From contig NC_020304.1 of the NCBI RefSeq assembly GCF_000341395.1, positions 1,500,001-1,532,000 on the forward strand: 32,000 nt of DNA. Reading direction: 5' to 3'. Each line of letters starts with the position of its first letter. Positions within the stretch are counted from its first letter, which is position 1. Made by a program: the position numbers and the translations under genes. This DNA comes from Desulfocapsa sulfexigens DSM 10523. Lineage in GTDB: Bacteria > Desulfobacterota > Desulfobulbia > Desulfobulbales > Desulfocapsaceae. The notes under the pieces were generated by a model. That model did no database searches. It was not told where the DNA came from and saw only the letters and a program-made list of their open reading frames with translations. Shown here in pieces: positions 2,793-32,000 of this stretch.

Positions 2793-3088
2793 TCTTGTTT
2801 TCTTCTTTCTGCTTATGCATTCAAACACAATACCATTTTACACACTATAATTGCTGCGTATATGGCTTTTCGCCGTAACCTTCTCATTTAGCACTACAGG
2901 TCAAATGTTTTTCCTTTAATAACTCCTGATTTTCTGATAAGCCATCAAGTAAGTACACAATAAAGAAGGTGCGTCTTCTCCTACTCCTGACAGGAACTTT
3001 TTCCTGTCGGATGATGGCTCGCTCTATTTTGCATTACGTAGTAATCGCCTGGTCTTTCTTTTTAACATATCTCAGTTGCAGGAAAAAT

Positions 3089-5299
3089 ATGTGTGCTAAG
3101 CGCCTCAGCGAAATTATGACTCCGGGGGTTGTTGGAGTTTCACCGGACACACCTGTCTTCACCGCCCTCGAACTTCTGCGCAATAAAAACATCAGCTGTA
3201 TTCTGGTGCTGGAAGACAATGAACCAGTGGGTATTTTCACGGAGCGCAAAGTGGTTCAGCTTGCAGCAGAGAAGGGACTGCAGCTTGACAGCTATGCAAT
3301 CAGTGACATCATGACCTCCCCTGTGCTGACCGCCAGCCGGGATATGGACATCTATTCGGCGTACAACATTCTCTCCACCCATAAAATCAGACATCTGGTA
3401 GTTGTTGACGAGAACAACAAACTCTGCGGCGTGGCGACCCAGTCGAACATAGTGGATCACCTCGGTTATGAATATTTTATTGAATTTAAGAAAATCTTTC
3501 AGGTTATGACCACGAACCTGTTCACTGTCTCCAGGGGCTATTCAGTGGAACAGACCCTCCAGGAAATGGCCAAAACGTCCACAAGTTGCCTATTGGTGGC
3601 GGAAAATGAGCGTCCCGTTGGCATTGTCACTGAACGAGACATGACCCGTCTGCTCATCAACGGTACCGATCTTAAAGGGCTGAATGTGGAAGACATCATG
3701 AGTCACCCGGTCCATACCGCCCATTTGACTCTGCCCCTGCTGGATGCCGCCAGGATCATGAAGGAGACCCGGATTCGACGGATCGTAGTGGTGGATGCGG
3801 ATGGGAAAATAGCCGGTTTGACAACCCAATCCGATATCATCAAGGGGCTTCACGGCCTATCCCTCCAGAATCTCAAACAGCTGGTAGTGGAAAAAGACCG
3901 GGAGTTGGAGCAAACAAGTAGAAAACTGGCAGAAAAAACCGTTTATCTCGACAACATCCTTCATTCCTCCGTAGATTTGGGAATGGTTGCCGCTGATTTG
4001 AATTATCATATCGTCTATTTTAACCCGGCAGCAGAAAAGATCCTGGATATTGCAGCCATTGAGGTGATTGGCCGTGATATTCGGACAATTCATAAAAAAA
4101 ATGAGGTTTTGGCTCCGCGTTTTGATAAACTTGTCGAGATGATTCAAAATAAAAAACGGCACGAGTTTACCTTTATTAAGGAGAAGGAAGCGATTCCCTG
4201 TTTTGTTAAGGCTCTAGTCACTGGGATATGGGATCCAGATCAAAGCCTTATCGGCTTTGTCCTTATGCTCCAGGACGTCACCGAACGCACTCTTGCCGAG
4301 AGGAAAATCAAGCGTCAGAAGTCGGATCTGGAGGTAATGAATGCTGAGCTGTCAGCTCTGTACGCGGTTTCTTCCAAGATAAGTCAGACACTGGAAATGG
4401 AGGTATTGCTCGATGAAGTTCTGGCTGTGATTACCAATATTGAGATTTTCAACTTTGAGCAGCAGGGAGGAATCTTTGTCGTTGATGGAGACAAGGTGCA
4501 GCTCGTTTCCCATATCGGGCTGGAGGAAAGCTGTCTTGGTTATCAAAATTCAAGGGGAATTAACGATTGTCCATGTGGCAGGGCTATCAGGAGTGGAGAA
4601 ACGCTTATTCTTGACAGTACGGAATTTGAAAAGACCGGGCTGACAGAAAAGAAATCCCATGGGGCCGTTATCGTTCCCATCAAAGCACAGGATAAGGTGA
4701 TCGGGGGACTCTGCCTCTTTACTCCTCCTGATTTTGCAGGCCTTGATGATGATAAGATCGTTTTACTCTCAACCATTGGCAACCAGATTGGAATTGCCAT
4801 GGAAAATGCCAGGCTCTATGAGCAGACGCGGTTTCTGTCCCTCTACGATCCCCTCACCAACGTGGCTAACAGACGCTTAATGACTAAGGGGCTTGAAAAA
4901 TATTTCTCCCTGGCCAAACGGTATAAGAAAATCTTCTCCATTATCATGCTGGATATTGATAATTTTAAGAAATATAATGACACCCATGGGCACAGTGCCG
5001 GGGACAAGATGCTTGTCAGGGTTGCCACGGTGCTGCTTGACGATATCCGCAATGCCGATGTTGTTGCCAGGTATGGCGGAGAGGAGTTCCTCATCATGCT
5101 TCCCGAAGCCACCCTGGAGACTGCTTTGCTCACAGCTGAAAGGATTCGGCAGAAAATTACCCACGAAACCGGCACCACCATAAGCCTTGGCGTTGCCACC
5201 TACGACTCAAGTATGACTAAAAATGAGCAACTGATAAACAAGGCGGACGAGGCCCTGTACCGTGCCAAGAAACGTGGTAAAAATCGGGTCGAATATTAA
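3089..5299 (+). CDS. Diguanylate cyclase with four CBS domains, PAS, GAF and GGDEF domains
   Basis: There are four CBS-like repeats (IMTPGVVGVSPD..., IMTSPVLTASRD..., VMTTNLFTVSRG..., IMSHPVHTAHLT...). These are followed by a PAS-like segment, a GAF-like segment and a C-terminal GGDEF domain with active site RYGGEEFLIML. An RxxD I-site (RNAD) lies 5 residues upstream of the active site. I prefer the ATG at 3089 (GGA about 6 nt upstream) over the track GTG at 2969, which abuts its putative SD and adds a non-conserved-looking 40 aa. Confidence 0.85.
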   Translation: MCAKRLSEIMTPGVVGVSPDTPVFTALELLRNKNISCILVLEDNEPVGIFTERKVVQLAAEKGLQLDSYAISDIMTSPVLTASRDMDIYSAYNILSTHKIRHLVVVDENNKLCGVATQSNIVDHLGYEYFIEFKKIFQVMTTNLFTVSRGYSVEQTLQEMAKTSTSCLLVAENERPVGIVTERDMTRLLINGTDLKGLNVEDIMSHPVHTAHLTLPLLDAARIMKETRIRRIVVVDADGKIAGLTTQSDIIKGLHGLSLQNLKQLVVEKDRELEQTSRKLAEKTVYLDNILHSSVDLGMVAADLNYHIVYFNPAAEKILDIAAIEVIGRDIRTIHKKNEVLAPRFDKLVEMIQNKKRHEFTFIKEKEAIPCFVKALVTGIWDPDQSLIGFVLMLQDVTERTLAERKIKRQKSDLEVMNAELSALYAVSSKISQTLEMEVLLDEVLAVITNIEIFNFEQQGGIFVVDGDKVQLVSHIGLEESCLGYQNSRGINDCPCGRAIRSGETLILDSTEFEKTGLTEKKSHGAVIVPIKAQDKVIGGLCLFTPPDFAGLDDDKIVLLSTIGNQIGIAMENARLYEQTRFLSLYDPLTNVANRRLMTKGLEKYFSLAKRYKKIFSIIMLDIDNFKKYNDTHGHSAGDKMLVRVATVLLDDIRNADVVARYGGEEFLIMLPEATLETALLTAERIRQKITHETGTTISLGVATYDSSMTKNEQLINKADEALYRAKKRGKNRVEY

Positions 5300-5778
5300 C
5301 GTGTTTCCCTGAGTCGTTTACACTGGTTCTTTGAGGTGAAAGAATGATACGGCCTGTGTCTAATTCGTATCCATTAGGCAGGAATACTGTCGTTGTTAGT
5401 CTCGCTTCTCAATTAAAAAATCATCATATATTAAAATCATATCTTGCTTAAAGAGCATAAATTCATTAATTATTTGCAGGATGTTGTTTTGTTTTTTTTT
5501 GAAGTATTTTGTAAAGGTACTTACTCCCCTTGGGGGGCGAACACTTTATAAACAAACAGCCTGCAGCGCAGATTTATGACAAAAAACAGCATATCTACTG
5601 CACCTCATTTTTTTTCAAAATATCAACCAAAAGCGAGTCGATGTGGTAGCATCTGCTTCGTCTCTGAGCTAACGACCATAGCCAACTCTCGGTTGTTAGC
5701 TCGTCCCTCGTATACGCAATCACCCCAACTCGTAAGAAATACGGGTTAAATCATTCACAAACCATTGGAGATCAGAAA

Positions 5779-7452
5779 ATGCAGAGTTTCAGGCAACCCA
5801 CGTTTTTTTTAATACTGTCCGCTGTTGTTTTGTTTTTCTATCCGTTCTATGCAATGGCAACTGATGCTAAAACTCTTGCCAGCCAGATCGACAAGGATTT
5901 ACGACAGGCAGAACGATTGATGTTCAACGGTAAAAAGACGGAGTCGGATGCATTACTGCAGCAGGTCAATGAAATGCTGGAACAACTGAAAGCTGTTGAT
6001 TCATCTTCAAAGGTAACAAGCCTGGAAAACAAATATAGCAGGACCCGAAAGGCGCTTGATAAAAAGATGGGTGGAGGAACAACAGCTCCAGCCATATCTG
6101 TTGCACCGAAGATGAGTGCGCCTGCTGTACCGGCAGTCAAGGGCGTTTCGCCATCTGGATCATCGCGTAAAGGTGGATATCAACAGCAAATGATGGAAAG
6201 AAACATCAAAAAAGCAGTTAAAGATGTTGATTACGAGATTGGTCGAGCAAGGGAAATGATGGAGCCGGACAATACGAACAGCAAATTTGGTATGGGTGCC
6301 GACGAAAAGGCAGCTAAAGGCGCAGACTACCTTGCCAAAGCAGAACAACATCTTGCAAAGACAGAACAGAAATATCCTGATTTATCACCCGAAAGTAAAG
6401 AGCAGTTTGCAGTAGCCAGAAAAAGTATTGCAGAGACTCAGGCGGCTCTGGATAGCTGGCAGAAAGAAGAACAGATAAAAACGGACAGCGCCGCCAGAGA
6501 AGCTGCGGTTACTGCAAATGCTGCGGCAGGCAAAATGGCAAAGATGAAAGATGATGCCGACTTGATTGTAGCGTTACATGAAAAATATTTTAATGCCTTT
6601 GAAAATATTCATGGTGGAACCCTTGTCCACGGTATGAAGATTGAGGAAGCTGATCAGGCTTTGGCGCTGGTGGCAAATGCAGAGAAAAGCATACCTTTGT
6701 TTGCCACGGATGTTGGTCGTCTCGCCCAGAGTTATGGTGAGACCTCCATGGATATTTACAACAAATTTCACGAAGGTGGCTACACCCTCAACAATGGTGA
6801 AGATCAGAAGATGAGCCAGTTGATTGAGGCGGTGGATAAACTGAAAAAAAGCAGGCAGGCATCGGCAGTTACCTTGGCTGGAAACGCAAAGGCACTATTG
6901 GGTGCATTTAATAATCAGTTGAATGATGCCAGGCTTCAGCGGATGGCTGAAGCTAAGAAACTTTTACTGGCTGGGCAACAGTTTGATCCGGAGAATGATC
7001 AGATTAAACAGATGCTGAATGATATTGACAGCCAGATGGAGCAGGTAGCCGATAAGATGACTGCCCAGATAGATGCGGCTAAATGGGCGGGAAATATCTC
7101 TGGATTTGCTGGGCCCGGTGATGTGACTGAGCTGGCGGCCGAAGCTAAGAAATATTTTGAGAATGACCGGGACTGGGGAGGCAAAAAAGATCGGGACATA
7201 AAAATTCTTGATGTTTGTATCCGTGGTCCCTGGAAGGTTGCGGAGACAGATGTGTTTGGACGGGTAATCAGCTGGCGACTGCCGATTCATGTCGCTGTTA
7301 CCGATGAAAAGCTGAAGCCACGAAACCTTGCCAGAGTATATGATTTATCCATTCTGGCCATGGAAGGACCTGCTGACAACGCACCTAAAAAACCACCATA
7401 TGATGGATTCTGGGTTGGAGATAGCTGGATGATGCGTCTGGATAAATTTTAA
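5779..7452 (+). CDS. Secreted protein of unknown function (signal peptide, long alpha-helical/coiled-coil-like region)
   Basis: 557 aa. SD GGAGA lies upstream. The hydrophobic N-terminus FFLILSAVVLFFYPFYAMA is followed by a charged, Ala/Lys/Glu/Gln-rich sequence. No family recognised. Confidence 0.7.
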   Translation: MQSFRQPTFFLILSAVVLFFYPFYAMATDAKTLASQIDKDLRQAERLMFNGKKTESDALLQQVNEMLEQLKAVDSSSKVTSLENKYSRTRKALDKKMGGGTTAPAISVAPKMSAPAVPAVKGVSPSGSSRKGGYQQQMMERNIKKAVKDVDYEIGRAREMMEPDNTNSKFGMGADEKAAKGADYLAKAEQHLAKTEQKYPDLSPESKEQFAVARKSIAETQAALDSWQKEEQIKTDSAAREAAVTANAAAGKMAKMKDDADLIVALHEKYFNAFENIHGGTLVHGMKIEEADQALALVANAEKSIPLFATDVGRLAQSYGETSMDIYNKFHEGGYTLNNGEDQKMSQLIEAVDKLKKSRQASAVTLAGNAKALLGAFNNQLNDARLQRMAEAKKLLLAGQQFDPENDQIKQMLNDIDSQMEQVADKMTAQIDAAKWAGNISGFAGPGDVTELAAEAKKYFENDRDWGGKKDRDIKILDVCIRGPWKVAETDVFGRVISWRLPIHVAVTDEKLKPRNLARVYDLSILAMEGPADNAPKKPPYDGFWVGDSWMMRLDKF

Positions 7453-7465
7453 TTACATGAATGAA

Positions 7466-7643
7466 CCTGATTACCATCGAAACTCAGCTTTGCAACCCGG
7501 AGTTGTTCCGTGTCGATTATATGGGACGCCATAAACCCATCCCTGGGGGCTCTGCTGCGGCCGTCCAGGCCGCAGATGCCCATATAATCAACACGAAAAA
7601 ACTCCTCATCAGGCGGGTAGGCTGAGGATTAGTGCTAATCAGG
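7466..7643 (+). mobile_element. MITE copy 1 (178 bp)
   Basis: Terminal inverted repeats are CCTGATTACCA ... (A)GTGCTAATCAGG. Flanking 8-mers are TGAATGAA (7458-7465) and TAAATGAA (7644-7651), matching at 7 of 8. It is about 95% identical to copy 2 and about 90% to copy 3, by eye. Confidence 0.85.
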
Positions 7644-7722
7644 TAAATGAATAGAGCAGGGGAATTTGTCGGATATAATTGATGCTCTTGCTTCGGAAAA
7701 CTGTGAAAAGGAGGAGGGAGTG

Positions 7723-8820
7723 ATGCGGAAGGATACGCGGAATTGCTGCATCTTTATGTGGGTTGTGTTTTTGGCTCTTTGTTGTTCTCCGGCATGGGGC
7801 TTTGATTTTGGCAAGATAGTGGATGGGGTGAGCAACGTTGTCGACAGTGCTCAGAAAGAAGTAAAAAAAGTCGTGAATTCGGAGAGTGAAAAAACATCCG
7901 GGGAAAAGTCATCACAATCGCAGTCCCAGCAGAGTAGTGCTCCCGATGCCGTGGTACAAAAATCCGGTACTGTAGGAAAGGCAGATCAGCCATTGGGAGA
8001 ATCGCTTTCTGTTTTTTCCACATCTCCCATTGATGTGAATGCTCCAGGAAACAGTGTTAGCAGTTTCAATGCAGGTGATCATATATACGGCCTGCTGCGT
8101 TCAAAGAAAAGCTGGAAACAGCAGGTGGGTGGCAGTAATTATCTGATCGTCTGGTTTTATCTTGACGGGGAGCAAAAGAGCTATAAGTCAGTTGGTTTGC
8201 AGAGGGCTGAGTTGTTAAATCAGGATTATTTTGTGTTGGATATCGCTCCTGATCCTGCGCGGATGACCAACTACAGTGATCCGGATGTTATCTTCCCTGA
8301 GGTAAAAGGAGACAAGTTTGGTCCTGAACTCTTCAGCCGTTATCTTGGTGAACTCAGTCCGGGCAAGCATACGGTGAGGATAGAGGTGAAGGCCTATAAT
8401 AAAGTGTATGCCTCTGGCTCATTTACGGTGGAGGGAAATGATTTTTCTTCTTATACCGCATTGTATAATTCTATTAAAAATAAGGCAGGGCAGATGGTGA
8501 CCATGCCGAAGGAGGGGTTGAGTAATCCGACCCTTGCAGCCGAGTTGGAAGGCATTTTGCAGCAGCACGGCTGGCCCCAGATCCAGAGATTAGTTATAGT
8601 TGATAAGGATTGGTGGATTGACAGAGTAGACGGGGGAGACACTGCGGTTAAATCAAGGCATATTGCAGCAGCGGCAGCCGCCCGTGGAACTGATGGGAAA
8701 CTCTTTTTCCAGGTGTTGACTTTTGAGCAGCCTATGCTGCTCAGTGGTGATTGGGGAAAACTGGATCTTAGTCATTCTGGTGAAAAAAAACCATTGCCAG
8801 AAGAAAACCTCAATAAATAA
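7723..8820 (+). CDS. Secreted protein of unknown function (signal peptide, Ser/Gln-rich linker)
   Basis: I prefer the ATG at 7723, preceded by AAGGAGGAGGGAG. This gives MRKDTRNCCIFMWVVFLALCCSPAWG as a signal peptide. The track start at 7666 lies next to the MITE. No family recognised. Confidence 0.7.
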   Translation: MRKDTRNCCIFMWVVFLALCCSPAWGFDFGKIVDGVSNVVDSAQKEVKKVVNSESEKTSGEKSSQSQSQQSSAPDAVVQKSGTVGKADQPLGESLSVFSTSPIDVNAPGNSVSSFNAGDHIYGLLRSKKSWKQQVGGSNYLIVWFYLDGEQKSYKSVGLQRAELLNQDYFVLDIAPDPARMTNYSDPDVIFPEVKGDKFGPELFSRYLGELSPGKHTVRIEVKAYNKVYASGSFTVEGNDFSSYTALYNSIKNKAGQMVTMPKEGLSNPTLAAELEGILQQHGWPQIQRLVIVDKDWWIDRVDGGDTAVKSRHIAAAAAARGTDGKLFFQVLTFEQPMLLSGDWGKLDLSHSGEKKPLPEENLNK

Positions 8821-8859
8821 GAGATTCGCCTAGTTGAAAAACTCAAAATGCGGCAGAGT

Positions 8860-8888
8860 TACCCCGCTTCCAAGATGGTGGCGGGGTA
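8860..8888. terminator. Hairpin between convergent genes (possible terminator)
   Basis: TACCCCGC (8860-8867) pairs with GCGGGGTA (8881-8888) around a 13-nt loop. U-tracts are weak on both strands. Confidence 0.35.
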
Positions 8889-8915
8889 GCGTGTGATGTT
8901 TGTAACGGATCGCCC

Positions 8916-11444
8916 TCAATTTGAGTCCAGCACTTTCCGGATCGTTCTTGAAAGCTCTTTGTTATCGACCGGCTTCATCAGAAAAGCTTTGATTCCAATT
9001 GAATCTGCTTTATCTGCATCAATTCTAGAACTATAACCAGTACACATAATAATTGGAATGTCAGGTCGAATGTGAAATAATTCCCCGGCTAGTTGTTCGC
9101 CTGTCATATACGGCATTGTCTGGTCCGTGATGACAAGGACGTAGTTTTTTGACTCAGTCCTGAAATGCTCAAGAGCTTCTTTGCTGCTTGTCATGGCAGT
9201 TGCCTTATATCCAAACATTTCTAATCGCTTTTTAGTAAGGGTAGCAAGGCTGGCATCGTCATCAACAATAAGAATTTTTCCCTTGCCTGGAGGAAGAGGA
9301 CTCGTATCGACTGCCTCAACTTCTTTAACTGCCTCTTTGATTTTTGGTAAGTACAGTTTGAATGTTGTTCCCTTGCCAGGGATACTCTCAACGGTAATCA
9401 TTCCTCCATGGCTATGAACAATTCCGTGAACTACGGATAAGCCCATGCCAGAACCTTTGCCAAACTCCTTTGTTGTAAAATAGGGGTCAAAAATTCGCCC
9501 CAGAATCTCTTTTTTTATACCAGTGCCAGTATCGCTGACAACTAGCAATATGTAAGGCCCTGGTTGTAAGTTTAAGTCAGCATCCAAGTCGTCACTTGTC
9601 AAATCAACAACACTTAAATCAATACCTAAAATCCCCCCATTTTCTTCCATGGCCTGAGCTGCGTTAGTACAGAGGTTCATGAGAATTTGATGGATTTGGG
9701 TGGGGTCAGCCAATGTGTTCCCACAGGAAGGAGCGATGTTCAGTTTAATGTCAATAGTAGTGGGGATTGAGGCTCGAAGGAAATTCAAGACCTCCTTAAT
9801 TACCAGATCAATTTGTACAGGTATTTGTTTTTGTTCCCCTTGGCGACTGAAAGATAATATCTGTTTCACCAGTTCCTTCGCACGAATTCCAGCTTTTAAA
9901 ACCTCCCCAATTTGATGTTTAGCCGGGCTCCAATCCGGAATATCATTCTTTGCCATTTCGGCATAGCCGATAATAGCAGCGAGAATATTGTTGAAATCAT
10001 GTGCTATCCCTCCAGAAAGTGTTCCGATGGCTTCCATTTTTTGAGTGTGAAGAAGTTGAGCCTGGAGCTTGTTTTTTTCTTCCTCTGCTTTGGTGCGGTC
10101 TGTAATATCCAGTGTGAAGCCAGCAAGCATATTGGGTTTGTTATTTATGAATATTGGGAATTTTGTGGTTTCGTAGATCCTTCCACCAAATTCTTCAATA
10201 ACATTTACAGTCACCCCTTCCTGAAGTATTTTCTTGTCATCTTCGATCATTTTTTTTGCCAGATCAGAAGGGAACAGGTCATCCATTGATCTGCCAATGA
10301 TTTTTTCGAGTGGCATGCCCAGCAGCTGTTCATAGTTTCTGCTCAACATTAAGGAGCGAATTTCGTGATCCTTAAAAAATATATATACGGGACTGTTTTC
10401 AAGGAATAATTGGAAAATTATCTGGTTTTCATATAAAGCATCTTCGGCCTGTTTTCGTTCTTCAACTTCTTTTTGGAGGGCTTCTGTCCGTTGACGCACC
10501 AATCGATTTAACATTCTGTTCCAGATGAGAAATGCACCTACAATTAGAAGCATGACTGAAACAGTATATAATGCCATTTTTTTCAGCTCTTGTTTAGTTA
10601 TGCCTGGAGTGGTGTCTAAACGTATCCATTTGTTTTGAATGTTTTTCCGTTCTTCTGCTGTTAGTAATGACACTCCTTTCTCTAGAATACTGCTGAGTTC
10701 CGGCCAATCAGAACGGACAGCAAATCCCGATATATTAGGTGGGTCAGTTTCTCCGGCTAGTTTTAAATTGGTAATCCCTTCTGATTCGATATAGAAACTA
10801 GCTGTTGCTAAATCACCCACAAAAGCATCTGCCATTCCAAAAGAGACTTTTCTCAGGGCAGCTTTCAGGTCAGAAACCAAATCAATCTCAATGTCAGGGT
10901 GGTTATTTCGGATCAGATCCACATAGCCATAACCGGAAACCATAACAACACGCATGCCTTTAAGCATGTCTAATGTGAGCTCTTTAGTCACGGTTTTTCT
11001 GACTATAATGACAGAAGGGATTTTTAAGTACGGTGGGGGAAATAATAGATATTTCTCACGTTGGGGGGTTTTGACAACGGCATTCAGTACATCCACTTCA
11101 CGCCTTTCCATCCTGGCGAGAACATCATCCCAACTTTTGCATTTCACAACTTCAAATTGAATACCGAGTTTTTTGGTGACAAGCCGCATATAGTCAGCGC
11201 CAATACCTTGATAATTTCCAGTCTTATCGAAAAACTCTATTGGTTCAAAATTCGGGTCCGGTGCCAAACGAATCGTTGGATGTGCCTTAATCCAGGCAAT
11301 TTCTTCTTTTGTGAGTTGTGCTTGGGTTACTCCAGTTTCTGCCAGGATCAATGAGATATCTAAAATAAGAATATTAACAAATGCAATGCATAGCATTAAC
11401 GTCATTGTTGCAAATTTTAGCCAGTTATGCCCACCACTTCTCAT
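8916..11444 (-). CDS. Hybrid sensor histidine kinase with a periplasmic solute-binding (SBP family 3-like) domain, TM, PAS, HisKA, HATPase and a C-terminal receiver
   Basis: 842 aa. It has an N-terminal TM helix and a periplasmic-binding-protein-like region. After a second TM helix come a PAS-like segment, the H-box GIAHDFNNILAAI, the N/G boxes (LMNLCTNAAQAM, DTGTGI, GKGSGMGL) and a receiver domain (ILIVDDD...TDQTMPYMTG...K). Confidence 0.9.
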   Translation of the reverse strand: MRSGGHNWLKFATMTLMLCIAFVNILILDISLILAETGVTQAQLTKEEIAWIKAHPTIRLAPDPNFEPIEFFDKTGNYQGIGADYMRLVTKKLGIQFEVVKCKSWDDVLARMERREVDVLNAVVKTPQREKYLLFPPPYLKIPSVIIVRKTVTKELTLDMLKGMRVVMVSGYGYVDLIRNNHPDIEIDLVSDLKAALRKVSFGMADAFVGDLATASFYIESEGITNLKLAGETDPPNISGFAVRSDWPELSSILEKGVSLLTAEERKNIQNKWIRLDTTPGITKQELKKMALYTVSVMLLIVGAFLIWNRMLNRLVRQRTEALQKEVEERKQAEDALYENQIIFQLFLENSPVYIFFKDHEIRSLMLSRNYEQLLGMPLEKIIGRSMDDLFPSDLAKKMIEDDKKILQEGVTVNVIEEFGGRIYETTKFPIFINNKPNMLAGFTLDITDRTKAEEEKNKLQAQLLHTQKMEAIGTLSGGIAHDFNNILAAIIGYAEMAKNDIPDWSPAKHQIGEVLKAGIRAKELVKQILSFSRQGEQKQIPVQIDLVIKEVLNFLRASIPTTIDIKLNIAPSCGNTLADPTQIHQILMNLCTNAAQAMEENGGILGIDLSVVDLTSDDLDADLNLQPGPYILLVVSDTGTGIKKEILGRIFDPYFTTKEFGKGSGMGLSVVHGIVHSHGGMITVESIPGKGTTFKLYLPKIKEAVKEVEAVDTSPLPPGKGKILIVDDDASLATLTKKRLEMFGYKATAMTSSKEALEHFRTESKNYVLVITDQTMPYMTGEQLAGELFHIRPDIPIIMCTGYSSRIDADKADSIGIKAFLMKPVDNKELSRTIRKVLDSN

Positions 11445-24019: not shown

Positions 24020-24107
24020 ACCAGGAAATGACTCTATAATTTGGTTCGAAGAGTATGGAGACAGGCTGTGCCGATGGTCAGAGTACATGTCAACGACGCT
24101 GATGCTT

Positions 24108-24674
24108 TCAGCTTTTAGGTAAATAATTTTTCATGATTTCATAAATAGCAGGTCGATTTTCCCGTATCTCATCCGCGCTCAAACCTTCCAGTGAATGAGG
24201 GTATTTAAGCCAGTCTGCGGTTTCGTGTACAGTATAATCCGGTGCCTTGCCTGTCTGATTACGAGATGGCTTGTAATAGGGTACGGCAATGCGGATATCT
24301 TCAGGAGTGTTTAAGCGTAATCTGCGTTGTAATTCATTGATAATGGCTTCAACCGAGCGGCCCGTGTCAAAGACATCGTCTACAATCAAGAGCCGATCGC
24401 TGTGTTGAAGGTTTTTTACCAGATAGTTGAGTCCAAACAGCTTTATTTCACGTGTTTTATTGTCAATCCCACTGTAGGAGGAGGTACGGATTGCGATATT
24501 GTCAGATACTATGCCGTGAAAAGCCAGAAACTCCTGAACGGCGATACCTATGGGGACCCCGCCACGCCATACGGCGATGATAAACGTGGGCCGAAAGCCA
24601 CTATCAAGGATCTGACGACCAAGCTTAAAGGAATCTTCCAGCAGACCCTGGGCGGTGAGGTAGACTTTATCCAT
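24108..24674 (-). CDS. Type-I phosphoribosyltransferase (purine PRTase-like)
   Basis: 188 aa, with the PRPP-binding motif LLIVDDVFDTGRS. Confidence 0.8.
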   Translation of the reverse strand: MDKVYLTAQGLLEDSFKLGRQILDSGFRPTFIIAVWRGGVPIGIAVQEFLAFHGIVSDNIAIRTSSYSGIDNKTREIKLFGLNYLVKNLQHSDRLLIVDDVFDTGRSVEAIINELQRRLRLNTPEDIRIAVPYYKPSRNQTGKAPDYTVHETADWLKYPHSLEGLSADEIRENRPAIYEIMKNYLPKS

Positions 24675-24834
24675 TGCTAACCTTAAAGTTTTCTTATCGA
24701 AGGCTCATTCATCCTGTAACCACTGTAAATATCTATTTTATACAAGTAATGTTCTAAAAAGGGTATCTTAAAAGCCATGATTCTACTGTGTAATAACGAA
24801 CTTTTTCTGGAGAGTATTATCCAAGGGCGAATGT

Positions 24835-25407
24835 ATGAACAAAATTTTTCTTGATGAAGAAACCCTGATTCTCGATTCCTTCAAACTGGGAGTGCAGGTT
24901 TTTGAAAGCGGCTTTCGGCCCACGTTTATCGTGGGACTGTGGCGGGGAGGCAGTTCCGTTGCCATTTATGTTCAGGAATGTCTGCAGACGCTGGGGGTGG
25001 AGACAAATCATATCTCACTTCGTACATCCTATCGCGGCCAGCCCTCTTATCAGGAGGCGGTCGCAGCGGCTAATGCTGAGATAAGGGTTCACGGTACCCA
25101 GTATCTTCTTGAAAACCTCAACGCTGACGATGCGCTGCTGCTGGTAGACGATGTCTTCAGCACCGGTAAAAGTATAGAAGCAGTCATAAACCGGTTGAGC
25201 CGTCATCTGAAACGCAATATGCCCAGGGAGGTCAAGATTGCCACTCTCTGGGATAGACCTTCTTTCAGGGAATCTGAGATAGATCCGGATTTCTACCAGC
25301 ATCGAACGGAGGACTGGCTGGTTTTTCCTTACGAAATGAGTGGTCTCACAATGGATGAAATCCAGGAGCACAAACCTTTTCTTGTCCCATTCCTGCAGAA
25401 TGGTTGA
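24835..25407 (+). CDS. Type-I phosphoribosyltransferase paralogue, first gene of the kinase/cyclase operon
   Basis: 190 aa, with the PRPP motif LLLVDDVFSTGKS. It aligns with the divergent neighbour over its full length, roughly 35-45% identical by eye. Its stop, TGA at 25405-25407, overlaps the TTG at 25404 of the next ORF. Confidence 0.8.
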   Translation: MNKIFLDEETLILDSFKLGVQVFESGFRPTFIVGLWRGGSSVAIYVQECLQTLGVETNHISLRTSYRGQPSYQEAVAAANAEIRVHGTQYLLENLNADDALLLVDDVFSTGKSIEAVINRLSRHLKRNMPREVKIATLWDRPSFRESEIDPDFYQHRTEDWLVFPYEMSGLTMDEIQEHKPFLVPFLQNG

Positions 25408-26387
25408 ATAATTCAATGAATTATTGCGTCTATGGTCTGCTGCTTGAGAGTAATGTAGAGCTCTCCGGACTTCAATCTTGCAAGGCAGCAGGTGAGAAAA
25501 TTGATGTAACCGCTACAATGGGGGACTTTCCGGGCGAGATAGAACGGCTTTTCCACCACTCCATGCCGCAAAGGTATTATGCTGAACCGGGATATATAGA
25601 GGGTGATCCACCCCGTCTTGTTGTAAATACTCTGGCTGATGGCCAATATTATCATTTTTCCTATGCGGTTGGGGTACAGTTTGTTTGTGATAAACTGGCA
25701 ACGAGTGTATGGGGAAGGTGGCAGGATCCTTTGACCCTTATGGATGCTACCCTTTTTCTGGTGGGTCCGATTCTTGGCTTTATGCTGCGACTGCAGGGTG
25801 TTACATGTTTGCATGCAAGTGGGGTTGTTATAGAAGGACGAGCGCTGGCTATCACAGGGCCGTCGGGCAGTGGGAAATCTACCCTGGCTGCAGCATTTGC
25901 AGCGGCTGGATTTCCCATATTAAGTGATGATATCTTGCCGTTGCAGTTTGAACAGGGAAGCCCGCAGGCACTCCCGGGATATTCCCGTCTACGTCTTTAT
26001 CCAAGATCTTTTAAGGGCATCACTCAATTACCCGACGATTTACCCGCTCTTTCACCACACTGGAGTAAGTGCTATCTTGACGTTGGTTCCGCTCCCTATT
26101 CATTTCACCACCTTTCCATACCCCTGCACGTTGTTTATTTTCTGGATTGGAAGAAGAGTGACGCCGCTGTTTCCCAAATAATGCCCGTAAAACCAATTTC
26201 TGCTGTGCCTCTCCTGGCTGCAAACACCTATCGCAATGAGGTACTGGATTCTGACATGAGAAAAAAAGAATTTTTTTTCCTCAGCCAGCTTGCTTCAAAA
26301 GTTACTGTAAGAACAATTCGGATGCGTGATGATCTCCATGGGATATCAAATCTTGTTGATGTGATCCGCAAGGATTTTAAGGGCTAG
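25404..26387 (+). CDS. HPr-kinase-like P-loop protein (lasso-peptide kinase-like)
   Basis: 327 aa. CLHASGVVIEGRALAITGPSGSGKSTLAAAFAAAGFPILSDD is the HPrK/P-type Walker A region. The start is either TTG 25404 or ATG 25416. Confidence 0.75.
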   Translation: MNNSMNYCVYGLLLESNVELSGLQSCKAAGEKIDVTATMGDFPGEIERLFHHSMPQRYYAEPGYIEGDPPRLVVNTLADGQYYHFSYAVGVQFVCDKLATSVWGRWQDPLTLMDATLFLVGPILGFMLRLQGVTCLHASGVVIEGRALAITGPSGSGKSTLAAAFAAAGFPILSDDILPLQFEQGSPQALPGYSRLRLYPRSFKGITQLPDDLPALSPHWSKCYLDVGSAPYSFHHLSIPLHVVYFLDWKKSDAAVSQIMPVKPISAVPLLAANTYRNEVLDSDMRKKEFFFLSQLASKVTVRTIRMRDDLHGISNLVDVIRKDFKG

Positions 26388-26394
26388 AAACTCT

Positions 26395-28233
26395 ATGAGT
26401 GGTTTTGTTGCCATTATTAACACGAACGGTGCGCCCGTTGATTGCGAAATCTTGAAATGGTTAACCGATGCTCTGCATTTTCGAGGAACAGACAGGCAGA
26501 AAGTTTGGTCGGAGGGACATGTAGGGTTCGGTCATGCGCTGTATGGCACAACATTTGAATCACACTATGAGTTTCAGCCTTCCAGTCTTGATGGTGAGTT
26601 CTGGATTACTGGAACTGCGCGCATTGATGCTCGTTCCGACTTGCTCAATAAGCTTGGCCTGCAATCGGAACTCAGGCTGGATCAGATTCCGGATTCTGAC
26701 CTCATCCTTTATGCATATCGTGCCTGGGGAGAAAGATGTCTTGATTATCTTCTTGGGGATTTTTCCTTTGTAATCTGGGACAAAGGGCGAAAAAAAGTCT
26801 TTTGTGCCCGTGACCAGTTTGGTATGCGTCAGCTGTATTATTCCCAAATCAGAGAATCCCTGATAATCAGCAACAGTCTCTACTGCATACAGCAACACCC
26901 CGCTGTTTCCAAAACCCTTGATGAAGGGGCTATGGCAGGATTTCTTCTCTTTGGTGACCACACCTGGCTGGATAAAGAGCTGACCGTTTATGCTGATGTC
27001 AAATCTCTCTTGCCAGCGCACTCTCTTGTCCTCAGCAGTGACGGATTTATGGTCAGGAAAAAATATTGGGATATTCCTGCCAATATACCACTACTTCGTT
27101 ATCGAAACGAAAATGATTACAGAGAGCATTTTCGTGAAGTTTTTAAAAAGGCTGTTTGTGATAGAATTCGCACCGATCGTGTGGTCCTTGCAATGAGCGG
27201 TGGTATGGACTCATCCTCTATTGCAGCCATGCTCTGTGAAATTCAGAATGAGGATAACCACCCCTTCCATATCAGCCCCGTTACTGTTGTTTACAATACT
27301 GTTCATCCGTGTCGGGAACATTATTTTGCTGGTCTTGTAGCTAGAAGACTTGGGTTGTCAATTCATTATATTGATGGTGATCTGTATCCTTTCCTTGGTG
27401 AGGCTATCAATACAACACGCCCTCTTGAAATTGACCAACCGTCACTCTGGATGGATATTATGCGTCAGGAGAGTCTTCTCGGGCGGGTTGTGCTAACAGG
27501 TGCTGCGGCTGATAATCTTCTCAGCTATCCGGCCAGTCTGGCTTCCTTAAGAGCAGCAGGTAATCCATTTAAAATTGTATATGATAGTATTCAATTGCGG
27601 AAACGATATGGGAAATTTCCGGGTCTGGGAACCGGTTTGCTCAACAAATTTCGAAATATCTGGCCCATAAATGGGAGCGGCGGATCTGCCCCTTATCCCT
27701 ATCCATCGTGGATAAAGAGTGAATTTGAAGAGAAAATGTGCTTGAAGGATGTTTGGGCGGAAAGATGGGCTTCTTCCGGGCGGCTGTTTGAGCTTCGTTC
27801 CAGGGCGTCTCTGCTCCATGAGTCGTTGTTGACCATGGATTGGTGTAGCGATGATAGTGTAATGAAGAACGAATTTCCACCGCCTGAAAAGCGAGATCCC
27901 TATCTCGATATACGAATGGTTGAGTTTGTACTCTCTCTTCCAGCAATTCCCTGGCTTTTCAATAAACATGTTTTGCGTTGTTCCATGAAAGGGAAATTGC
28001 CGGGCGAAGTGATAGAACGTCCCAAAACCCCTTTAGGCATGTTACAGCAGTCCTTGTTGGAATTACCAGGGACACAGTGGGTGGATGAATGGAAAGCTGT
28101 TCCAGGGCTCAAACCGTACATTGAAAGATCCAAAATACCCAGACTGGCGGGAGGCGTTCAGGGAGCAGTCTCTTCTTACATAAATCTACGACCGCTTATG
28201 TTGAACAGATGGTTGGGATGTTTGTCTATCTGA
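26395..28233 (+). CDS. Asparagine-synthetase-B-like protein, probable lasso cyclase (macrolactam synthetase)
   Basis: 612 aa, with the PP-loop ATP pyrophosphatase motif LAMSGGMDSSS. The N-terminus is M-S-G rather than M-C-G, so the glutaminase nucleophile Cys is missing, as in lasso cyclases. A kinase gene and a precursor-like gene lie next to it. Confidence 0.75.
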   Translation: MSGFVAIINTNGAPVDCEILKWLTDALHFRGTDRQKVWSEGHVGFGHALYGTTFESHYEFQPSSLDGEFWITGTARIDARSDLLNKLGLQSELRLDQIPDSDLILYAYRAWGERCLDYLLGDFSFVIWDKGRKKVFCARDQFGMRQLYYSQIRESLIISNSLYCIQQHPAVSKTLDEGAMAGFLLFGDHTWLDKELTVYADVKSLLPAHSLVLSSDGFMVRKKYWDIPANIPLLRYRNENDYREHFREVFKKAVCDRIRTDRVVLAMSGGMDSSSIAAMLCEIQNEDNHPFHISPVTVVYNTVHPCREHYFAGLVARRLGLSIHYIDGDLYPFLGEAINTTRPLEIDQPSLWMDIMRQESLLGRVVLTGAAADNLLSYPASLASLRAAGNPFKIVYDSIQLRKRYGKFPGLGTGLLNKFRNIWPINGSGGSAPYPYPSWIKSEFEEKMCLKDVWAERWASSGRLFELRSRASLLHESLLTMDWCSDDSVMKNEFPPPEKRDPYLDIRMVEFVLSLPAIPWLFNKHVLRCSMKGKLPGEVIERPKTPLGMLQQSLLELPGTQWVDEWKAVPGLKPYIERSKIPRLAGGVQGAVSSYINLRPLMLNRWLGCLSI

Positions 28234-28257
28234 TTGATAGCAAAAAGTGGTGACAGC

Positions 28258-28410
28258 TCAGGATGCGTGGTATGGATGTTCGCCATTGTCTCTTGGCGGA
28301 CCACCTTTGTTCATTCGGGTAAGCTCTTTTACTGAGCCGAAGACTTTCAGTTTGGGGCAGTGATAGTTCTTTCTGGTTGTCTTCTCTTGTTTTTTAGGTG
28401 TTGGCTTCAA
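28258..28410 (-). CDS. Candidate lasso-type RiPP precursor peptide (50 aa: 32-aa leader plus 18-aa core MNKGGPPRDNGEHPYHAS)
   Basis: TTG at 28410 has GGGGA 7 nt upstream. The leader YHCPKLKVFGSVKELTR fits YxxPxLx3Gx5Tx exactly, with Thr at -2. The core has Asp at position 9 and a C-terminal Ser. A near-consensus promoter lies inside the upstream part of the 72-aa track ORF. Confidence 0.6.
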   Translation of the reverse strand: MKPTPKKQEKTTRKNYHCPKLKVFGSVKELTRMNKGGPPRDNGEHPYHAS

Positions 28411-28462
28411 GTTTATTTCCCCATATGTGCCAGTTGGTATTCCTTCCCGTCTTCCCTTAACA

Positions 28463-28490
28463 TATATATTAAACAAATTTGTTTTGTCAA
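28463..28490 (-). promoter_or_regulatory. Near-consensus sigma70 promoter of the precursor gene, with a palindromic spacer
   Basis: The minus strand reads TTGACA (28490-28485), N16, TATATA (28468-28463). The spacer contains the perfect 14-bp palindrome AAACAAATTTGTTT (28471-28484). Confidence 0.6.
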
Positions 28491-28718
28491 TATAGAAGAG
28501 TACAGTTCATTCTATCCGTCCCTTACAGCATATAACAGCAAAAAGGTGACAAAAGAATTGGACTTTTAATAAAAAGAACAGTACCCGTTATTGGTATTGT
28601 TTACACTGTTTTGTTATAGATAACTGATTCGTGCTATCGTCTTCTGCCTAGAAGAAGATGGTTGAATCGGCTTCAATGCAATACCTGCGCATTGCCAGAG
28701 AATCACCAGCTTTAAGGA

Positions 28719-29066
28719 GTGTTCAACAAGTATATGTCAGAAGACAATAAACATGATGTTGCGGCTGCAGTCACCGATATACAGCTTCTTCTTGCTGAGA
28801 AACGAACCTCTCTTGCTCTGATGCGTACAGGGATTGCAGTCCTGGCTCTTCCACTGTCAGTCTTGAGCTTACTGATTGCCACATCGAAGTATTATGAAGC
28901 TATAGATGTACTCTCTTTTCTTATACCATTGGCCATATTACTTTCTTTTCTGGTTGGCTTAGGGCTGTATCTTATCATTCGCTCCATTCGCCGTATGCAT
29001 CGTAATGATGCTTTGATTCATAGAATAAAGTTGAAGTATGAAGAGATTGCAGAGTATGTGGATTGA
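28719..29066 (+). CDS. DUF202 (YidH-like) small membrane protein
   Basis: 115 aa. LLAEKRTSLALMRTGIAVLAL matches the LAxERTxLAWxRT-type DUF202 signature and is followed by 2 more TM helices. The start is GTG 28719 or ATG 28734. Confidence 0.65.
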   Translation: MFNKYMSEDNKHDVAAAVTDIQLLLAEKRTSLALMRTGIAVLALPLSVLSLLIATSKYYEAIDVLSFLIPLAILLSFLVGLGLYLIIRSIRRMHRNDALIHRIKLKYEEIAEYVD

Positions 29067-29489: not shown

Positions 29490-29839
29490 TTAAAAAATGC
29501 AGTCTGGGGTGGGAATAGTGAAATCCGGGCTGTCTGATACGTCAAATTTATCTGATTTTTTACGATTCTATTTATTACTCTTATTGGCTTTACATACTTT
29601 CTGCTATGCGGTGCTTTCAGCACTTCTTGAGATATCAGGGTCCCCTGCCGGTGTTTGCCACAAAAAAATCTCCTTCAAACTTGCTTTATGGATTGGATTT
29701 TTCCTGCCGGAATCCGGCAAAGCATCCGATAATACTGTTTGTATATTGCTTGCTCAGATGATACGCTGACCCCTGTAAAACGAGAAAAAACCGTTTTCGA
29801 AATAAGAGCGGCGTAATTTTTTTTAATTCCCTTGTAATC

Positions 29840-30196
29840 ATGAAAATAGAAAGCAGAACAAATGGTTCGGTCCTTATTGCAACCATACTTGAAGAACGTT
29901 TTGATGCCACCTGTGCCCCCGACTTTATTGTTGTTATGAAGGAGTGGATAGCTGCCGGTAATATACAGATAATCCTCGATTTTGGCCATGTTGACTTTAT
30001 GGACAGTACGGCCCTTGGTGTTGTAATTAAAAGTTTTAAATGGTTGCGACAGGCCGATAACGGAAATGGAGAACTGGGCCTTTGCAGTGTCAATGACAAG
30101 ATAATGAGCCTCCTGCAGTTGACTCGAATGGATAGAGTTTTTCTCGTTTTTCCCGATAGTCAGGAAGCAATAAAAACAATAACTGAATCCAGATGA
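29840..30196 (+). CDS. STAS-domain anti-sigma-factor antagonist (SpoIIAA/RsbV-like)
   Basis: 118 aa, with DFGHVDFMDSTALGVVI containing the conserved phosphorylatable Ser context (DSxxLG). Confidence 0.85.
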   Translation: MKIESRTNGSVLIATILEERFDATCAPDFIVVMKEWIAAGNIQIILDFGHVDFMDSTALGVVIKSFKWLRQADNGNGELGLCSVNDKIMSLLQLTRMDRVFLVFPDSQEAIKTITESR

Positions 30197-30636
30197 GTTC
30201 TCCTGAAAGTCACTATTTACAACTGATTATTCCAAGCGAAAAGGAGGACTCTCGCCTTATTGGCAGGGCCGTGTATTCATTTTGTCTTCATATGGGATTT
30301 GATGAGGTTCAAAGTTATCAGATTGAGTTGGCAACGGTTGAGGTTACACATAATATTGTTGGTCACGCCTATGATAATTGTCCCGACTGTGTGATCGAGC
30401 TTCATGCGCAGGGATTGGCTGACAGGATTATTTTCACCATAATTGATAACGGTAAATCTGCAGACGCTTTTGCGTTCCCTGCCTGTTGTCCCGTTGATCC
30501 GGGGAGTGCGATTGACAGGTTGCCGGAGTCTTCCATGGGACTCTATATTATAGCTTCTGTTATGGATACCGTGGAGTACGAGGTGTATGAAAATTCTAAT
30601 ATACTGACCATGATGAAGTATCTGCCCAAATCATGA
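30193..30636 (+). CDS. RsbW/SpoIIAB-like anti-sigma factor serine kinase (HATPase_c)
   Basis: 147 aa. ATGA overlap with the STAS gene. It has an N-box-like EVTHNIVGHAY, then IIDNGKS and SMGLYII, which are G-box-like. Confidence 0.75.
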   Translation: MSSPESHYLQLIIPSEKEDSRLIGRAVYSFCLHMGFDEVQSYQIELATVEVTHNIVGHAYDNCPDCVIELHAQGLADRIIFTIIDNGKSADAFAFPACCPVDPGSAIDRLPESSMGLYIIASVMDTVEYEVYENSNILTMMKYLPKS

Positions 30637-32000
30637 ACGTTAACGGGTTCTTTTCTCAAAAAAACTGGTTAGCTCCTGTTGTTATTGGTTGTCTGCTGCT
30701 GACCACTCCTCTATTCCTCTCAGGAGTTATCACCCGCCTTACCACCAAAGAGCAGTTTTTTTTCGCCTGGGGACTGATCTTTCTGGTTCTTGTTTTACGG
30801 AAGGTGGCCCATCATTTTTCTGTCTTTTTTGGTATCCTTATTTCCTTCTGCACTCTGTTTCTGCTGAGCCGATATTTCTTTTTTCGTCTGAGTTCGACCC
30901 TGCTTTACACCTCAACTCTGGAGTTTTTCTTTATTCTGGTTCTTTTTGCGGCGGAAATCTACGGTATGTTTATTCAGGTGATGGGGATGATCATCAATGT
31001 AATGCCTCTGTATCGACCGGCAGTGCAATCCATTGAACTTAGTGATCCCGATCTCCCCGTTGTCGATGTCCTTATTCCCACCTACAATGAGCCGGAACAG
31101 ATGGTTGCCATTACCGCCAGTGCCTGTACGCTTTTTGATTATCCTCGGGAAAAACTCAACATTTATATTCTCGATGATGGAGGAACAACTCAGAAACGTA
31201 ATGCTGCTGACCCGAAAAGTGCCGCCGCTGCCCTCGTTCGTCACGAAACCCTCAAGGTGCTGGCTGAATATCTTGAAGTGAATTACCTGACCAGAGAGGA
31301 AAATATATCTGCAAAGGCAGGAAATATTAATGCCGCGCTCTACACAAGCGACGATGGTCAGCAACATCCCAGTGGAGATCTAGTCCTGGTTCTGGACTGT
31401 GATCACGTGCCCACAAGGGATTTTCTTCAGAATACGGTTGGCTACTTTTTGAAAGATCCGAAGCTGTTTCTGGTACAGACTCCGCATTTCTTTATTAACC
31501 CTGACCCGGTGGAAAAGAATCTCGATACCTTCAATAAGATTCCGGGAGATAATGTGATGTTTTACGGGAAGGTACTTCCCGGACTTGATTTATGGAATGC
31601 GGCGTTTTTTTGCGGTTCTGCCGCTGTGCTCCGCAGAAGCTGTCTCGATGAAGTTGGAGGTATCGTAGGGGAAACCATCACCGAAGATGCGGAAACTGCT
31701 TTGACCATGCATGGTCGGGGGTACAATTCTGTCTATGTTGGCAAACCAATGGTTTGCGGACTCTGTCCAGAAACTTTTGAGGACTTTATAATTCAGCGAA
31801 ACAGATGGGCTCAGGGGATGGCTCAGATTTTGTTGCTTAAGAATCCTCTTTTTGCCCGTGGACTCAGTCTGATTCAGCGACTTTGTTATCTGAACTCTGC
31901 CGGATTCTGGTTTTTCAGTTTTTCCAGGCTGATGTTTATGCTGGCCCCGTTTTTTTATCTTTATGGAGATCTGCAGATATATCATGCAACCCTGTTACAG
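30633..32000 (+). CDS. bcsA: Cellulose synthase catalytic subunit-like family-2 glycosyltransferase (3' end outside the window)
   Basis: Not in the ORF track because no stop is reached. I translated it by hand from ATG 30633, which has an ATGA overlap with the kinase gene. It has N-terminal TM helices, then VDVLIPTYNEP, YILDDGG, LVLDCDH, VQTPHFFINPDPVEKNL, FFCGSAAVLRR, TEDAETAL and QRNRWAQG (QxxRW). Confidence 0.8.
   Translation, partial: MNVNGFFSQKNWLAPVVIGCLLLTTPLFLSGVITRLTTKEQFFFAWGLIFLVLVLRKVAHHFSVFFGILISFCTLFLLSRYFFFRLSSTLLYTSTLEFFFILVLFAAEIYGMFIQVMGMIINVMPLYRPAVQSIELSDPDLPVVDVLIPTYNEPEQMVAITASACTLFDYPREKLNIYILDDGGTTQKRNAADPKSAAAALVRHETLKVLAEYLEVNYLTREENISAKAGNINAALYTSDDGQQHPSGDLVLVLDCDHVPTRDFLQNTVGYFLKDPKLFLVQTPHFFINPDPVEKNLDTFNKIPGDNVMFYGKVLPGLDLWNAAFFCGSAAVLRRSCLDEVGGIVGETITEDAETALTMHGRGYNSVYVGKPMVCGLCPETFEDFIIQRNRWAQGMAQILLLKNPLFARGLSLIQRLCYLNSAGFWFFSFSRLMFMLAPFFYLYGDLQIYHATLLQ

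Follow-up and report, generated by a model that had tools for sequence, protein, structure and literature searches.

Does the short minus-strand open reading frame at 28258–28410 of this DNA encode the precursor of a lasso peptide, and, if it does, how would such a precursor be matured at a locus where neither a leader peptidase (B2) nor an RRE (B1) gene is found? The sequence considered here, referred to as the window, is a 32,000-nt stretch of the genome of Desulfocapsa sulfexigens DSM 10523 (NC_020304.1, positions 1,500,001 to 1,532,000), and all coordinates are those of the window unless another locus is named. The annotation of the ORF as a lasso precursor gene, designated A, draws on its translation, on a match of its leader to the model NF033528, on orthologous small ORFs beside related cyclases and on the divergence of its core from that of a near-identical locus, L088. 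Together with a kinase gene (K) and a cyclase gene (C), it forms what is termed here the K-C-A cassette.

Precursor gene and translation start

Gene A (28258..28410, minus strand) encodes 50 aa from a TTG start codon at 28410–28408 to a stop codon at 28258–28260. Its translation is (TTG)MKPTPKKQEKTTRKNYHCPKLKVFGSVKELTR for the 32-aa leader (28315–28410), followed by MNKGGPPRDNGEHPYHAS for the 18-aa core (28261–28314); written by segments, the precursor is (TTG)M-KPTPKKQEKTTRKN-YHCPKLKVFGSVKELTR-MNKGGPPRDNGEHPYHAS-stop. This is identical to the hand translation given in an earlier, sequence-only reading of the same DNA. A public protein set contains a 50-aa protein of identical sequence that likewise begins at this TTG, and an exact look-up of the 50-aa peptide across assemblies returned no match.

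The mechanical ORF for A reaches farther, to a TTG at 28476, from which a 72-aa product would be made. In the orthologous precursors, which use ATG whereas the window precursor uses TTG, the start codon is found 15–18 residues N-terminal of the Tyr of the leader motif; TTG 28410 is therefore favoured over TTG 28476, whose 22 extra residues are without counterpart, and as judged from these alignments it is likely to be the translation start of A. A possible Shine-Dalgarno sequence, GGGGAA (28422–28417, minus strand), can be read 6 nt upstream of it. No credible minus-strand gene was found upstream of A, and the divergent intergenic region at 28411..28718 must contain its own promoter. A strict sigma-70 promoter scan upstream of A yielded zero sites; a weak sigma-70-like candidate, TTGACA (28490–28485) and TATATA (28468–28463) separated by 16 nt, can be read from the minus strand. 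An Rfam search of the whole window gave no match.

Leader motif and core

The leader segment YHCPKLKVFGSVKELTR had been read as a position-for-position fit to the lasso leader signature YxxPxLx3Gx5Tx, and it does match this signature at every fixed position, with Tyr at −17, Pro at −14, Leu at −12 and Thr at −2 as in lasso precursor leaders. The core of 18 aa has an Asp at position 9 and a C-terminal Ser (...YHAS), within the range of ~15–25 residues with an Asp or Glu at positions 7–9 that is looked for in lasso cores. In all six reading frames of the window the strict motif is found a single time, against a chance expectation of 0.007 per simulated 32 kb (first-order Markov, 300 simulations), and the motif followed by a 12–30 aa core with D/E at positions 7–9 occurred in none of the 300 simulations. 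These statistics, together with the conservation of the ORF at the same position in related loci, lead us to reject a chance ORF. The leader is also matched by the NF033528 lasso-peptide model (E=2.4e-5, 23.3–24.2 bits, model positions 3–22 only); the curated cut-off of this model is 33 bits, so that by the NCBI rule A is related to the family and not a member of it. The same model matches 7 of the 10 precursors of the closest clade described below.

Cyclase

The plus-strand gene C (26395..28233) encodes a 612-aa asparagine-synthetase-like macrolactam synthetase with Pfam Asn_synthase and GATase_6/7 domains, and it adjoins A tail to tail, the two stop codons being separated by a 24-nt gap. Among NCBIfam models it scores best against the lasso cyclase model NF033535, with 293.6 bits where the curated cut-off is 525 bits; the asparagine synthase model reaches 162 bits. 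The protein begins MSG, with Ser in place of the glutaminase Cys2, and it keeps an intact PP-loop, SGGMDSS, at residue 268. Cyclase homologues are numerous. A profile search of genome contigs with the single cyclase as query gave no match, and the same kind of search with a cyclase alignment retrieved mostly distant relatives; the identity of C to these, as to cyanobacterial and acidobacterial cyclases, is 33–38%.

Kinase

The third gene of the cassette, K (25416..26387, plus strand), encodes an HPr-kinase-like peptide kinase of 323 aa from an ATG at 25416, the mechanical ORF starting at a TTG at 25404. It contains a Walker A sequence, GPSGSGKST, at residue 148 and an SDD motif at residue 170, and it matches TIGR04352 (HprK-related kinase A) with E=5.8e-10, which places a kinase of this type within the cluster. 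The match to Pfam Hpr_kinase_C is weak (E=0.005), and the window protein alone falls below the Pfam cut-off; a family HMM ties K to the kinases of 77–78 of the 84 loci compared below. When a profile of 28 cassette kinases was built, its best PDB matches were the HPr kinase/phosphorylase structures 1jb1, 2qmh and 1ko7 (E~1e-9), over a region spanning the His, the Walker A motif and the Asp-Asp region. In paeninodin and pseudomycoidin it is homologues of HPr kinase that phosphorylate the last Ser of the core, at the stage of the linear precursor (PMC8498205, PMC6993621).

The closest match to K (51% identity) is the kinase of a complete cluster, L087 (350 aa, L087 4536–5588). K is only ~20–27% identical to the 294–299-aa kinases of L001, L002 and L085 (L085 183–1082), despite the cyclases of those loci being closer to C. 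Two kinase lineages are thus associated with one cyclase clade, which suggests module shuffling.

Related loci and conservation of the precursor

The comparison set consists of 84 loci with homologous cyclases, in almost all of which a motif-bearing small ORF lies directly beside the cyclase. By iterated HMMs the usual gene order in these loci is B1(PqqD)-B2(Transglut_core3)-C-A-K, a kinase being present in 77–78 of them, B1 in 66 and B2 in 59. In the closest clade, whose cyclases are 53–99% identical to C (L001, L002, L004, L084, L085, L087, L088 and L089), the precursor is always on the strand opposite the cyclase, usually 11–41 nt from the cyclase stop.

Alignment of the small ORFs beside these orthologous cyclases, a check proposed by the sequence-only reading, showed that the ORF, the leader motif, Asp9 and the terminal Ser are conserved in the clade. 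Across the 10 clade precursors exactly seven columns are invariant, namely Tyr-17, Pro-14, Leu-12 and Thr-2 in the leader and Asp9, Gly11 and the C-terminal Ser in the core. The leader/core boundary, the Met1-Asp9 ring and the terminal Ser as kinase target, all proposed from the letters of the window, agree well with this alignment, in which Thr-2, Asp9 and Ser are unchanged throughout; Asp9 is moreover the commonest acceptor position across the 84-locus family, and the HPr-kinase-like gene lies in the same cassette as the Ser-ending core. Elsewhere, B1 recognises Y-17, P-14 and L-12 of the leader and cleavage needs T-2; in the lasso literature these positions and the Asp are given roles in RRE binding, cleavage and ring closure (PMC10368454). 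The alternative register also put forward, a ring from Gly4 to Glu12, can be rejected, as position 12 is Tyr in L088, beside a 99% identical cyclase, and is non-acidic in the other relatives.

The Met at core position 1 had been called unusual. This is true of lasso peptides generally, in which the first core residue is usually Gly, Ala, Ser or Cys, but not of this family, in which position 1 is highly variable (Ala, Thr, Ser, Glu, Met, Lys, Asn, Arg and others, with Gly rare); it is Met in the window, Glu in L088 and Ala in most relatives. Near the C terminus, an aromatic residue followed by His (Y/W/F-x0-1-H-x-S) is common among the clade precursors, a pattern that fits a putative role of these side chains as steric plugs. 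In the distant acidobacterial and cyanobacterial precursors (L005–L083), the core usually ends in Lys/Arg-Thr plus 0–3 residues and not in a terminal Ser; a kinase is still present at nearly all of these loci, and the phospho-acceptor there may be the near-terminal Thr.

Several arrangements within the clade were observed in addition. Convergence of C and A, usually with 11–41 nt between the stops, was seen in L001, L002, L004, L084, L085 and L089; the corresponding gap in the window (28234–28257) leaves no room for a terminator, and transcripts reading through from C or A would be antisense to the partner gene, with a possible regulatory effect. L002, a Desulfobulbaceae MAG, carries at 3937–6014 and 7001–11283 two cyclases and two precursors with one B2 and one full and one short PqqD gene; its second precursor reads ...AYSAPKLTLLGKVNNMTQ/AAALEFRVDGTFSMGS. 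In L087 (2146–2676 and 3342–4487) an IS200-like transposase separates B1 from B2 and a PRMT-like methyltransferase adjoins the kinase, and at 3043–5654 of L084 toxin-antitoxin pairs and a truncated GATase fragment are found between C-A and B2.

Core divergence between near-identical strains

The metagenome contig L088 encodes a cyclase 99% identical to C and thus offers a comparison at short range. The two sequences differ in 23 columns of 2,682 aligned nt, and 10 of the 23 fall within the 60-nt core, including an in-frame 3-nt indel; this is a ~35-fold enrichment of the differences in the core (Fisher p=1.3e-11). The leader, by comparison, has one amino-acid change and the 407 nt upstream one substitution, and the two cyclases are separated by 5 differences that are nonsynonymous and 4 that are synonymous, numbers too low to reveal constraint. 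The core is MNKGGPPRDNGEHPYHAS in the window and ENKGGPPKDGGYNNPFHAS in L088, seven changes apart including the in-frame codon insertion, and both cores keep the frame, Asp9 and the terminal Ser. A conserved leader joined to a hypervariable core is the typical pattern of a RiPP precursor, and the presence of this pattern between the two loci argues that A is under selection. Fast core evolution between near-identical strains is also what would be expected of a secreted, biologically active RiPP. A terminator-like hairpin was flagged on the plus strand at 28278–28301; it lies inside the hypervariable core, its sequence is not conserved in L088, and as a plus-strand terminator it is probably a chance structure.

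Taken on its own sequence and that of its relatives, the minus-strand ORF at 28258–28410 is a lasso-peptide precursor gene.

Strain variability and genomic backbone

The sister genome L090 (GCA_975001335.1) aligns to window positions 24107–25581 and resumes at 28567 (junction at L090 5722–5729). It is without the intervening 2.98-kb segment (25582..28566), which contains most of K, all of C and A, and the upstream region of A, and it retains the first ~170 nt of the kinase gene as a deletion scar. This alignment shows that the K-C-A cassette, which is thus strain-variable, has been lost by deletion in one lineage, and the cassette is therefore dispensable. The surrounding backbone of L090 is 93–98% identical to the window and includes 6PGD, a pyridine-nucleotide oxidoreductase, a VTT-domain protein, two PRTase-like genes, a STAS/RsbW-like pair and the bcs operon. 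Named relatives of the 6-phosphogluconate dehydrogenase (6PGD), 77–79% identical to it, come from Desulfobulbaceae and Desulfurivibrio MAGs, from which a Desulfobulbales-like host is deduced.

The neighbours of the cassette belong to this backbone. The two PRTase-like genes, paralogous and divergent and each encoding ~190 aa (24108–24674, minus strand; 24835–25407, plus strand), were considered as tailoring enzymes and rejected, being absent from the other 83 loci, and the DUF202-like gene at 28719–29066 was likewise rejected as a part of the cassette; all three are kept in L090, which lacks K-C-A, and are therefore assigned to the backbone and not to the pathway. The plus-strand PRTase-like gene ends 8 nt before the kinase ATG and may be co-transcribed with K-C.

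To the right, a STAS anti-sigma antagonist and an RsbW-like kinase (29840–30636) immediately precede a bcsA-bcsB-GH8-bcsC operon (30633–32000 and on into the overlapping sequence L092), whose start they overlap. The L092 extension carries the cellulose-synthase operon, a response regulator and an outer-membrane factor; the response regulator, which has a SpoIIE phosphatase domain, follows the bcs operon. This STAS/RsbW-like/SpoIIE set looks like a partner-switching control of cellulose synthesis. Elsewhere in the window there is an IS110-family transposase (DEDD_Tnp_IS110 and Transposase_20; 1672–2706, minus strand), and two long plus-strand ORFs, 5779–7452 (557 aa) and 7666–8820 (384 aa), have no Pfam match at E<=0.001.

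Absence of B1 and B2 from the locus

By Pfam, neither the leader peptidase B2 (Transglut_core3) nor the RRE protein B1 (PqqD-like) is encoded in the 32-kb window, and family HMMs for these proteins, built from 59–69 family members, found no B1, B2 or remnant in its six-frame translation (all E>1). The search could be carried farther with L092, a contig of Logan run SRR25712206, which is 100% identical to window positions 29512–32000 and runs 8.6 kb beyond the right end; no B1 or B2 was found in those 8.6 kb. B1 and B2 are thus missing from the ~28 kb that flank gene A to one side and the ~12 kb to the other, and the locus is not a canonical A-B-C cluster.

The orthologous loci L002, L004, L084 and L087 do have B1/B2. 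In the complete L087 cluster the order is B1, the IS200-like transposase, B2, the PRMT-like methyltransferase, K, C and a convergent A, and in gene content and order the cassette of the window resembles the K-C-A end of a cluster of this type. The B genes can be distant: B2 is 7.5 kb from C-A-K in L039, and B genes are ~3 kb away in L084, L042 and L065, with B2 behind the toxin-antitoxin genes in the case of L084; in L002 a single B1/B2 set accompanies two C-A pairs. From the arrangements in L002, L084 and L039 it follows that B genes need not adjoin C-A-K. Six further loci with full flanks, L001, L025, L026, L027, L036 and L070, have no B genes within 7–8 kb; they come from unrelated lineages and keep the leader motif. 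A cyanobacterial C-A-K cluster without B genes was already pointed out by Zyubko et al. (PMC6993621). When metagenomes were scanned for close relatives of B2, none of the contigs retrieved belonged to the scaffold sets of L001 or L088. Recognisable precursors were present on few of these short contigs, and the scan is uninformative on B1/B2 in trans.

How the precursor could be matured

Most likely, and as an assumption on our part, B1 and B2 are supplied in trans from elsewhere in the genome. The sequence-only reading had likewise supposed, from the retained leader motif, that an RRE is encoded somewhere in the genome, which is a reasonable supposition. This reading is ranked first because the residues recognised by the RRE and the protease stay invariant, and it is followed by a non-productive relic and then by natural independence of B1/B2. 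We regard A, with good confidence, as a functional class II-type lasso precursor matured with trans-encoded B1/B2; its identity as a lasso precursor by descent holds under all three readings.

It is unlikely that the cassette is a relic, in which A would be a true precursor by descent in a pathway that no longer yields product, the B1-B2 part of an L087-type cluster (B1-B2-methyltransferase-K-C-A) having been lost and the rest heading to deletion. Such a history would accommodate the lack of B1/B2 in ~40 kb around A, the affinity of K to a kinase that, in its own complete cluster, is preceded by both B1 and B2, the kinase stub left where a sister strain has deleted K-C-A, the TTG that stands in place of the ATG of orthologues and the 5 to 4 ratio of cyclase differences from L088, which are too few to show constraint. 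It fits poorly with ORFs of K, C and A that are all intact and retain every family-invariant residue, and uniform neutral decay would not concentrate inter-strain changes ~35-fold in the core while frame, Asp9 and terminal Ser are kept. B-less cassettes with intact leader motifs, moreover, recur in the unrelated lineages of L001, L025, L026, L027, L036 and L070.

Very unlikely, in our estimate, is a self-sufficient cassette in which a housekeeping protease removes the leader and the cyclase alone makes the lasso. There is precedent in pseudomycoidin, for which a lasso was formed in vivo, in both E. coli and B. subtilis, with neither B1/B2 nor the leader, and in the cyanobacterial C-A-K cluster without B genes (Zyubko et al., PMC6993621); B-independence has so far been seen only in heterologous expression of pseudomycoidin (PMC6993621). 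C-A-K loci without B genes do recur among the 84 loci, but the RRE-binding residues and Thr-2 are invariant in them, which is hard to explain without an RRE or B2, and K (323 aa) and C (612 aa) are no longer than their counterparts in B-containing loci, so that a fused RRE is not evident. The Met1-Asn2 pair would in addition be a poor context for methionine aminopeptidase, whose specificity does not favour it. A version of this idea that treats K-C-A as a naturally B1/B2-independent pathway, a housekeeping protease removing the leader, and the core turnover (Met1 versus Glu1, the in-frame indel) as diversifying selection on an active secreted peptide is likewise distinctly improbable. Leaderless translation, with the real product beginning at core Met1 (28314–28312) and needing no leader removal, has in its favour that this first core codon is the only ATG in frame and that the locus is without B genes, but we reject it as having a negligible probability, since L088, with its 99% identical cyclase, has GAG (Glu) there while keeping the TTG and a nearly identical leader, and since the leader motif is conserved across the clade.

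With B1 and B2 supplied in trans, established lasso biochemistry would lead to the following course. The 50-aa peptide would be translated from TTG 28410, and Ser18 of the core would be phosphorylated, presumably by K, on the linear precursor. An RRE (B1) would bind the leader at Tyr-17, at Pro-14 and at Leu-12, and the B2 cysteine protease would cut after Thr-2-Arg-1. C would then adenylate Asp9 and join it to the alpha-amine of Met1 to give a 9-residue macrolactam, through which the tail NGEHPYHAS would be threaded, with Tyr15 and His16 as the likely plugs. For this lasso a monoisotopic M of 1944.865 is predicted, rising to 2024.831 when a single phosphate is added.

Relation to known lasso peptides

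The nearest described type is that of paeninodin from Paenibacillus dendritiformis, which shares with the window an HPr-kinase-like gene in the cluster, a leader with YxxPxL and Thr-2, an Asn-synthetase-like C protein and a core ending in Ser, the residue phosphorylated on the linear precursor by those kinases (PMC8498205). Unlike it, the window locus is without B1, B2 and an ABC exporter, its precursor is convergent with the cyclase, its core starts with Met (Glu or Ala in relatives), its kinase matches Pfam Hpr_kinase_C only weakly (E=0.005) and its host is Desulfobulbaceae-like and not a Firmicute.

Pseudomycoidin, from the psm cluster of Bacillus pseudomycoides, also has a macrolactam between positions 1 and 9 (Ala1-Glu9), and PsmK phosphorylates its C-terminal Ser; by description, the DD metal-binding motif of PsmK resembles the SDD of K (PMC6993621). 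In contrast to the window locus, which has no nucleotidyltransferase or glycosyltransferase, psm encodes functional B1/B2, its B-independence having been shown only in heterologous hosts (PMC6993621). Stanieria cyanosphaera PCC 7437, again as described, combines a cyclase, a precursor and a kinase with no B proteins and so matches the window cassette in gene content (PMC6993621). The best-scoring curated models for the leader and for C, NF033528 (lasso_cyano precursor) and NF033535 (lasso cyclase, cyanobacterial type), are both matched below their cut-offs, and the window precursor differs from the 35-position NF033528 model in a 14-residue Lys-rich N-terminal extension. The bsf lasso cluster of Bradymonas sediminis, deltaproteobacterial in type, likewise has a kinase and a leader with YxxPxL; it has Ile at −2, Ser3 as the kinase target, a Gly1-Asp8 ring and B1, B2, D and N genes (PMC10368454), whereas the window has Thr at −2, presumably the C-terminal Ser as target and a predicted Met1-Asp9 ring.

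Gene A adds a further member to a class already known, that of the kinase-associated and presumably phosphorylated lasso peptides, and is not a new kind of system. Its less common features, namely the convergent A and C, the locus without B1, B2 or exporter, Met or Glu at core position 1 and the Desulfobulbaceae-like host, do not place it outside that class. The prediction is of an 18-residue, probably C-terminally phosphorylated lasso peptide from a sulfur-cycle lineage. Such cases would be expected to escape mining rules that demand a Gly, Ala, Ser or Cys start or a B gene close by. Between them, the complete clusters, the cassettes that lack B genes, the locus lost by deletion and the two near-identical strains whose cores differ provide a natural comparison bearing on whether B1/B2 may work in trans or can be dispensed with.
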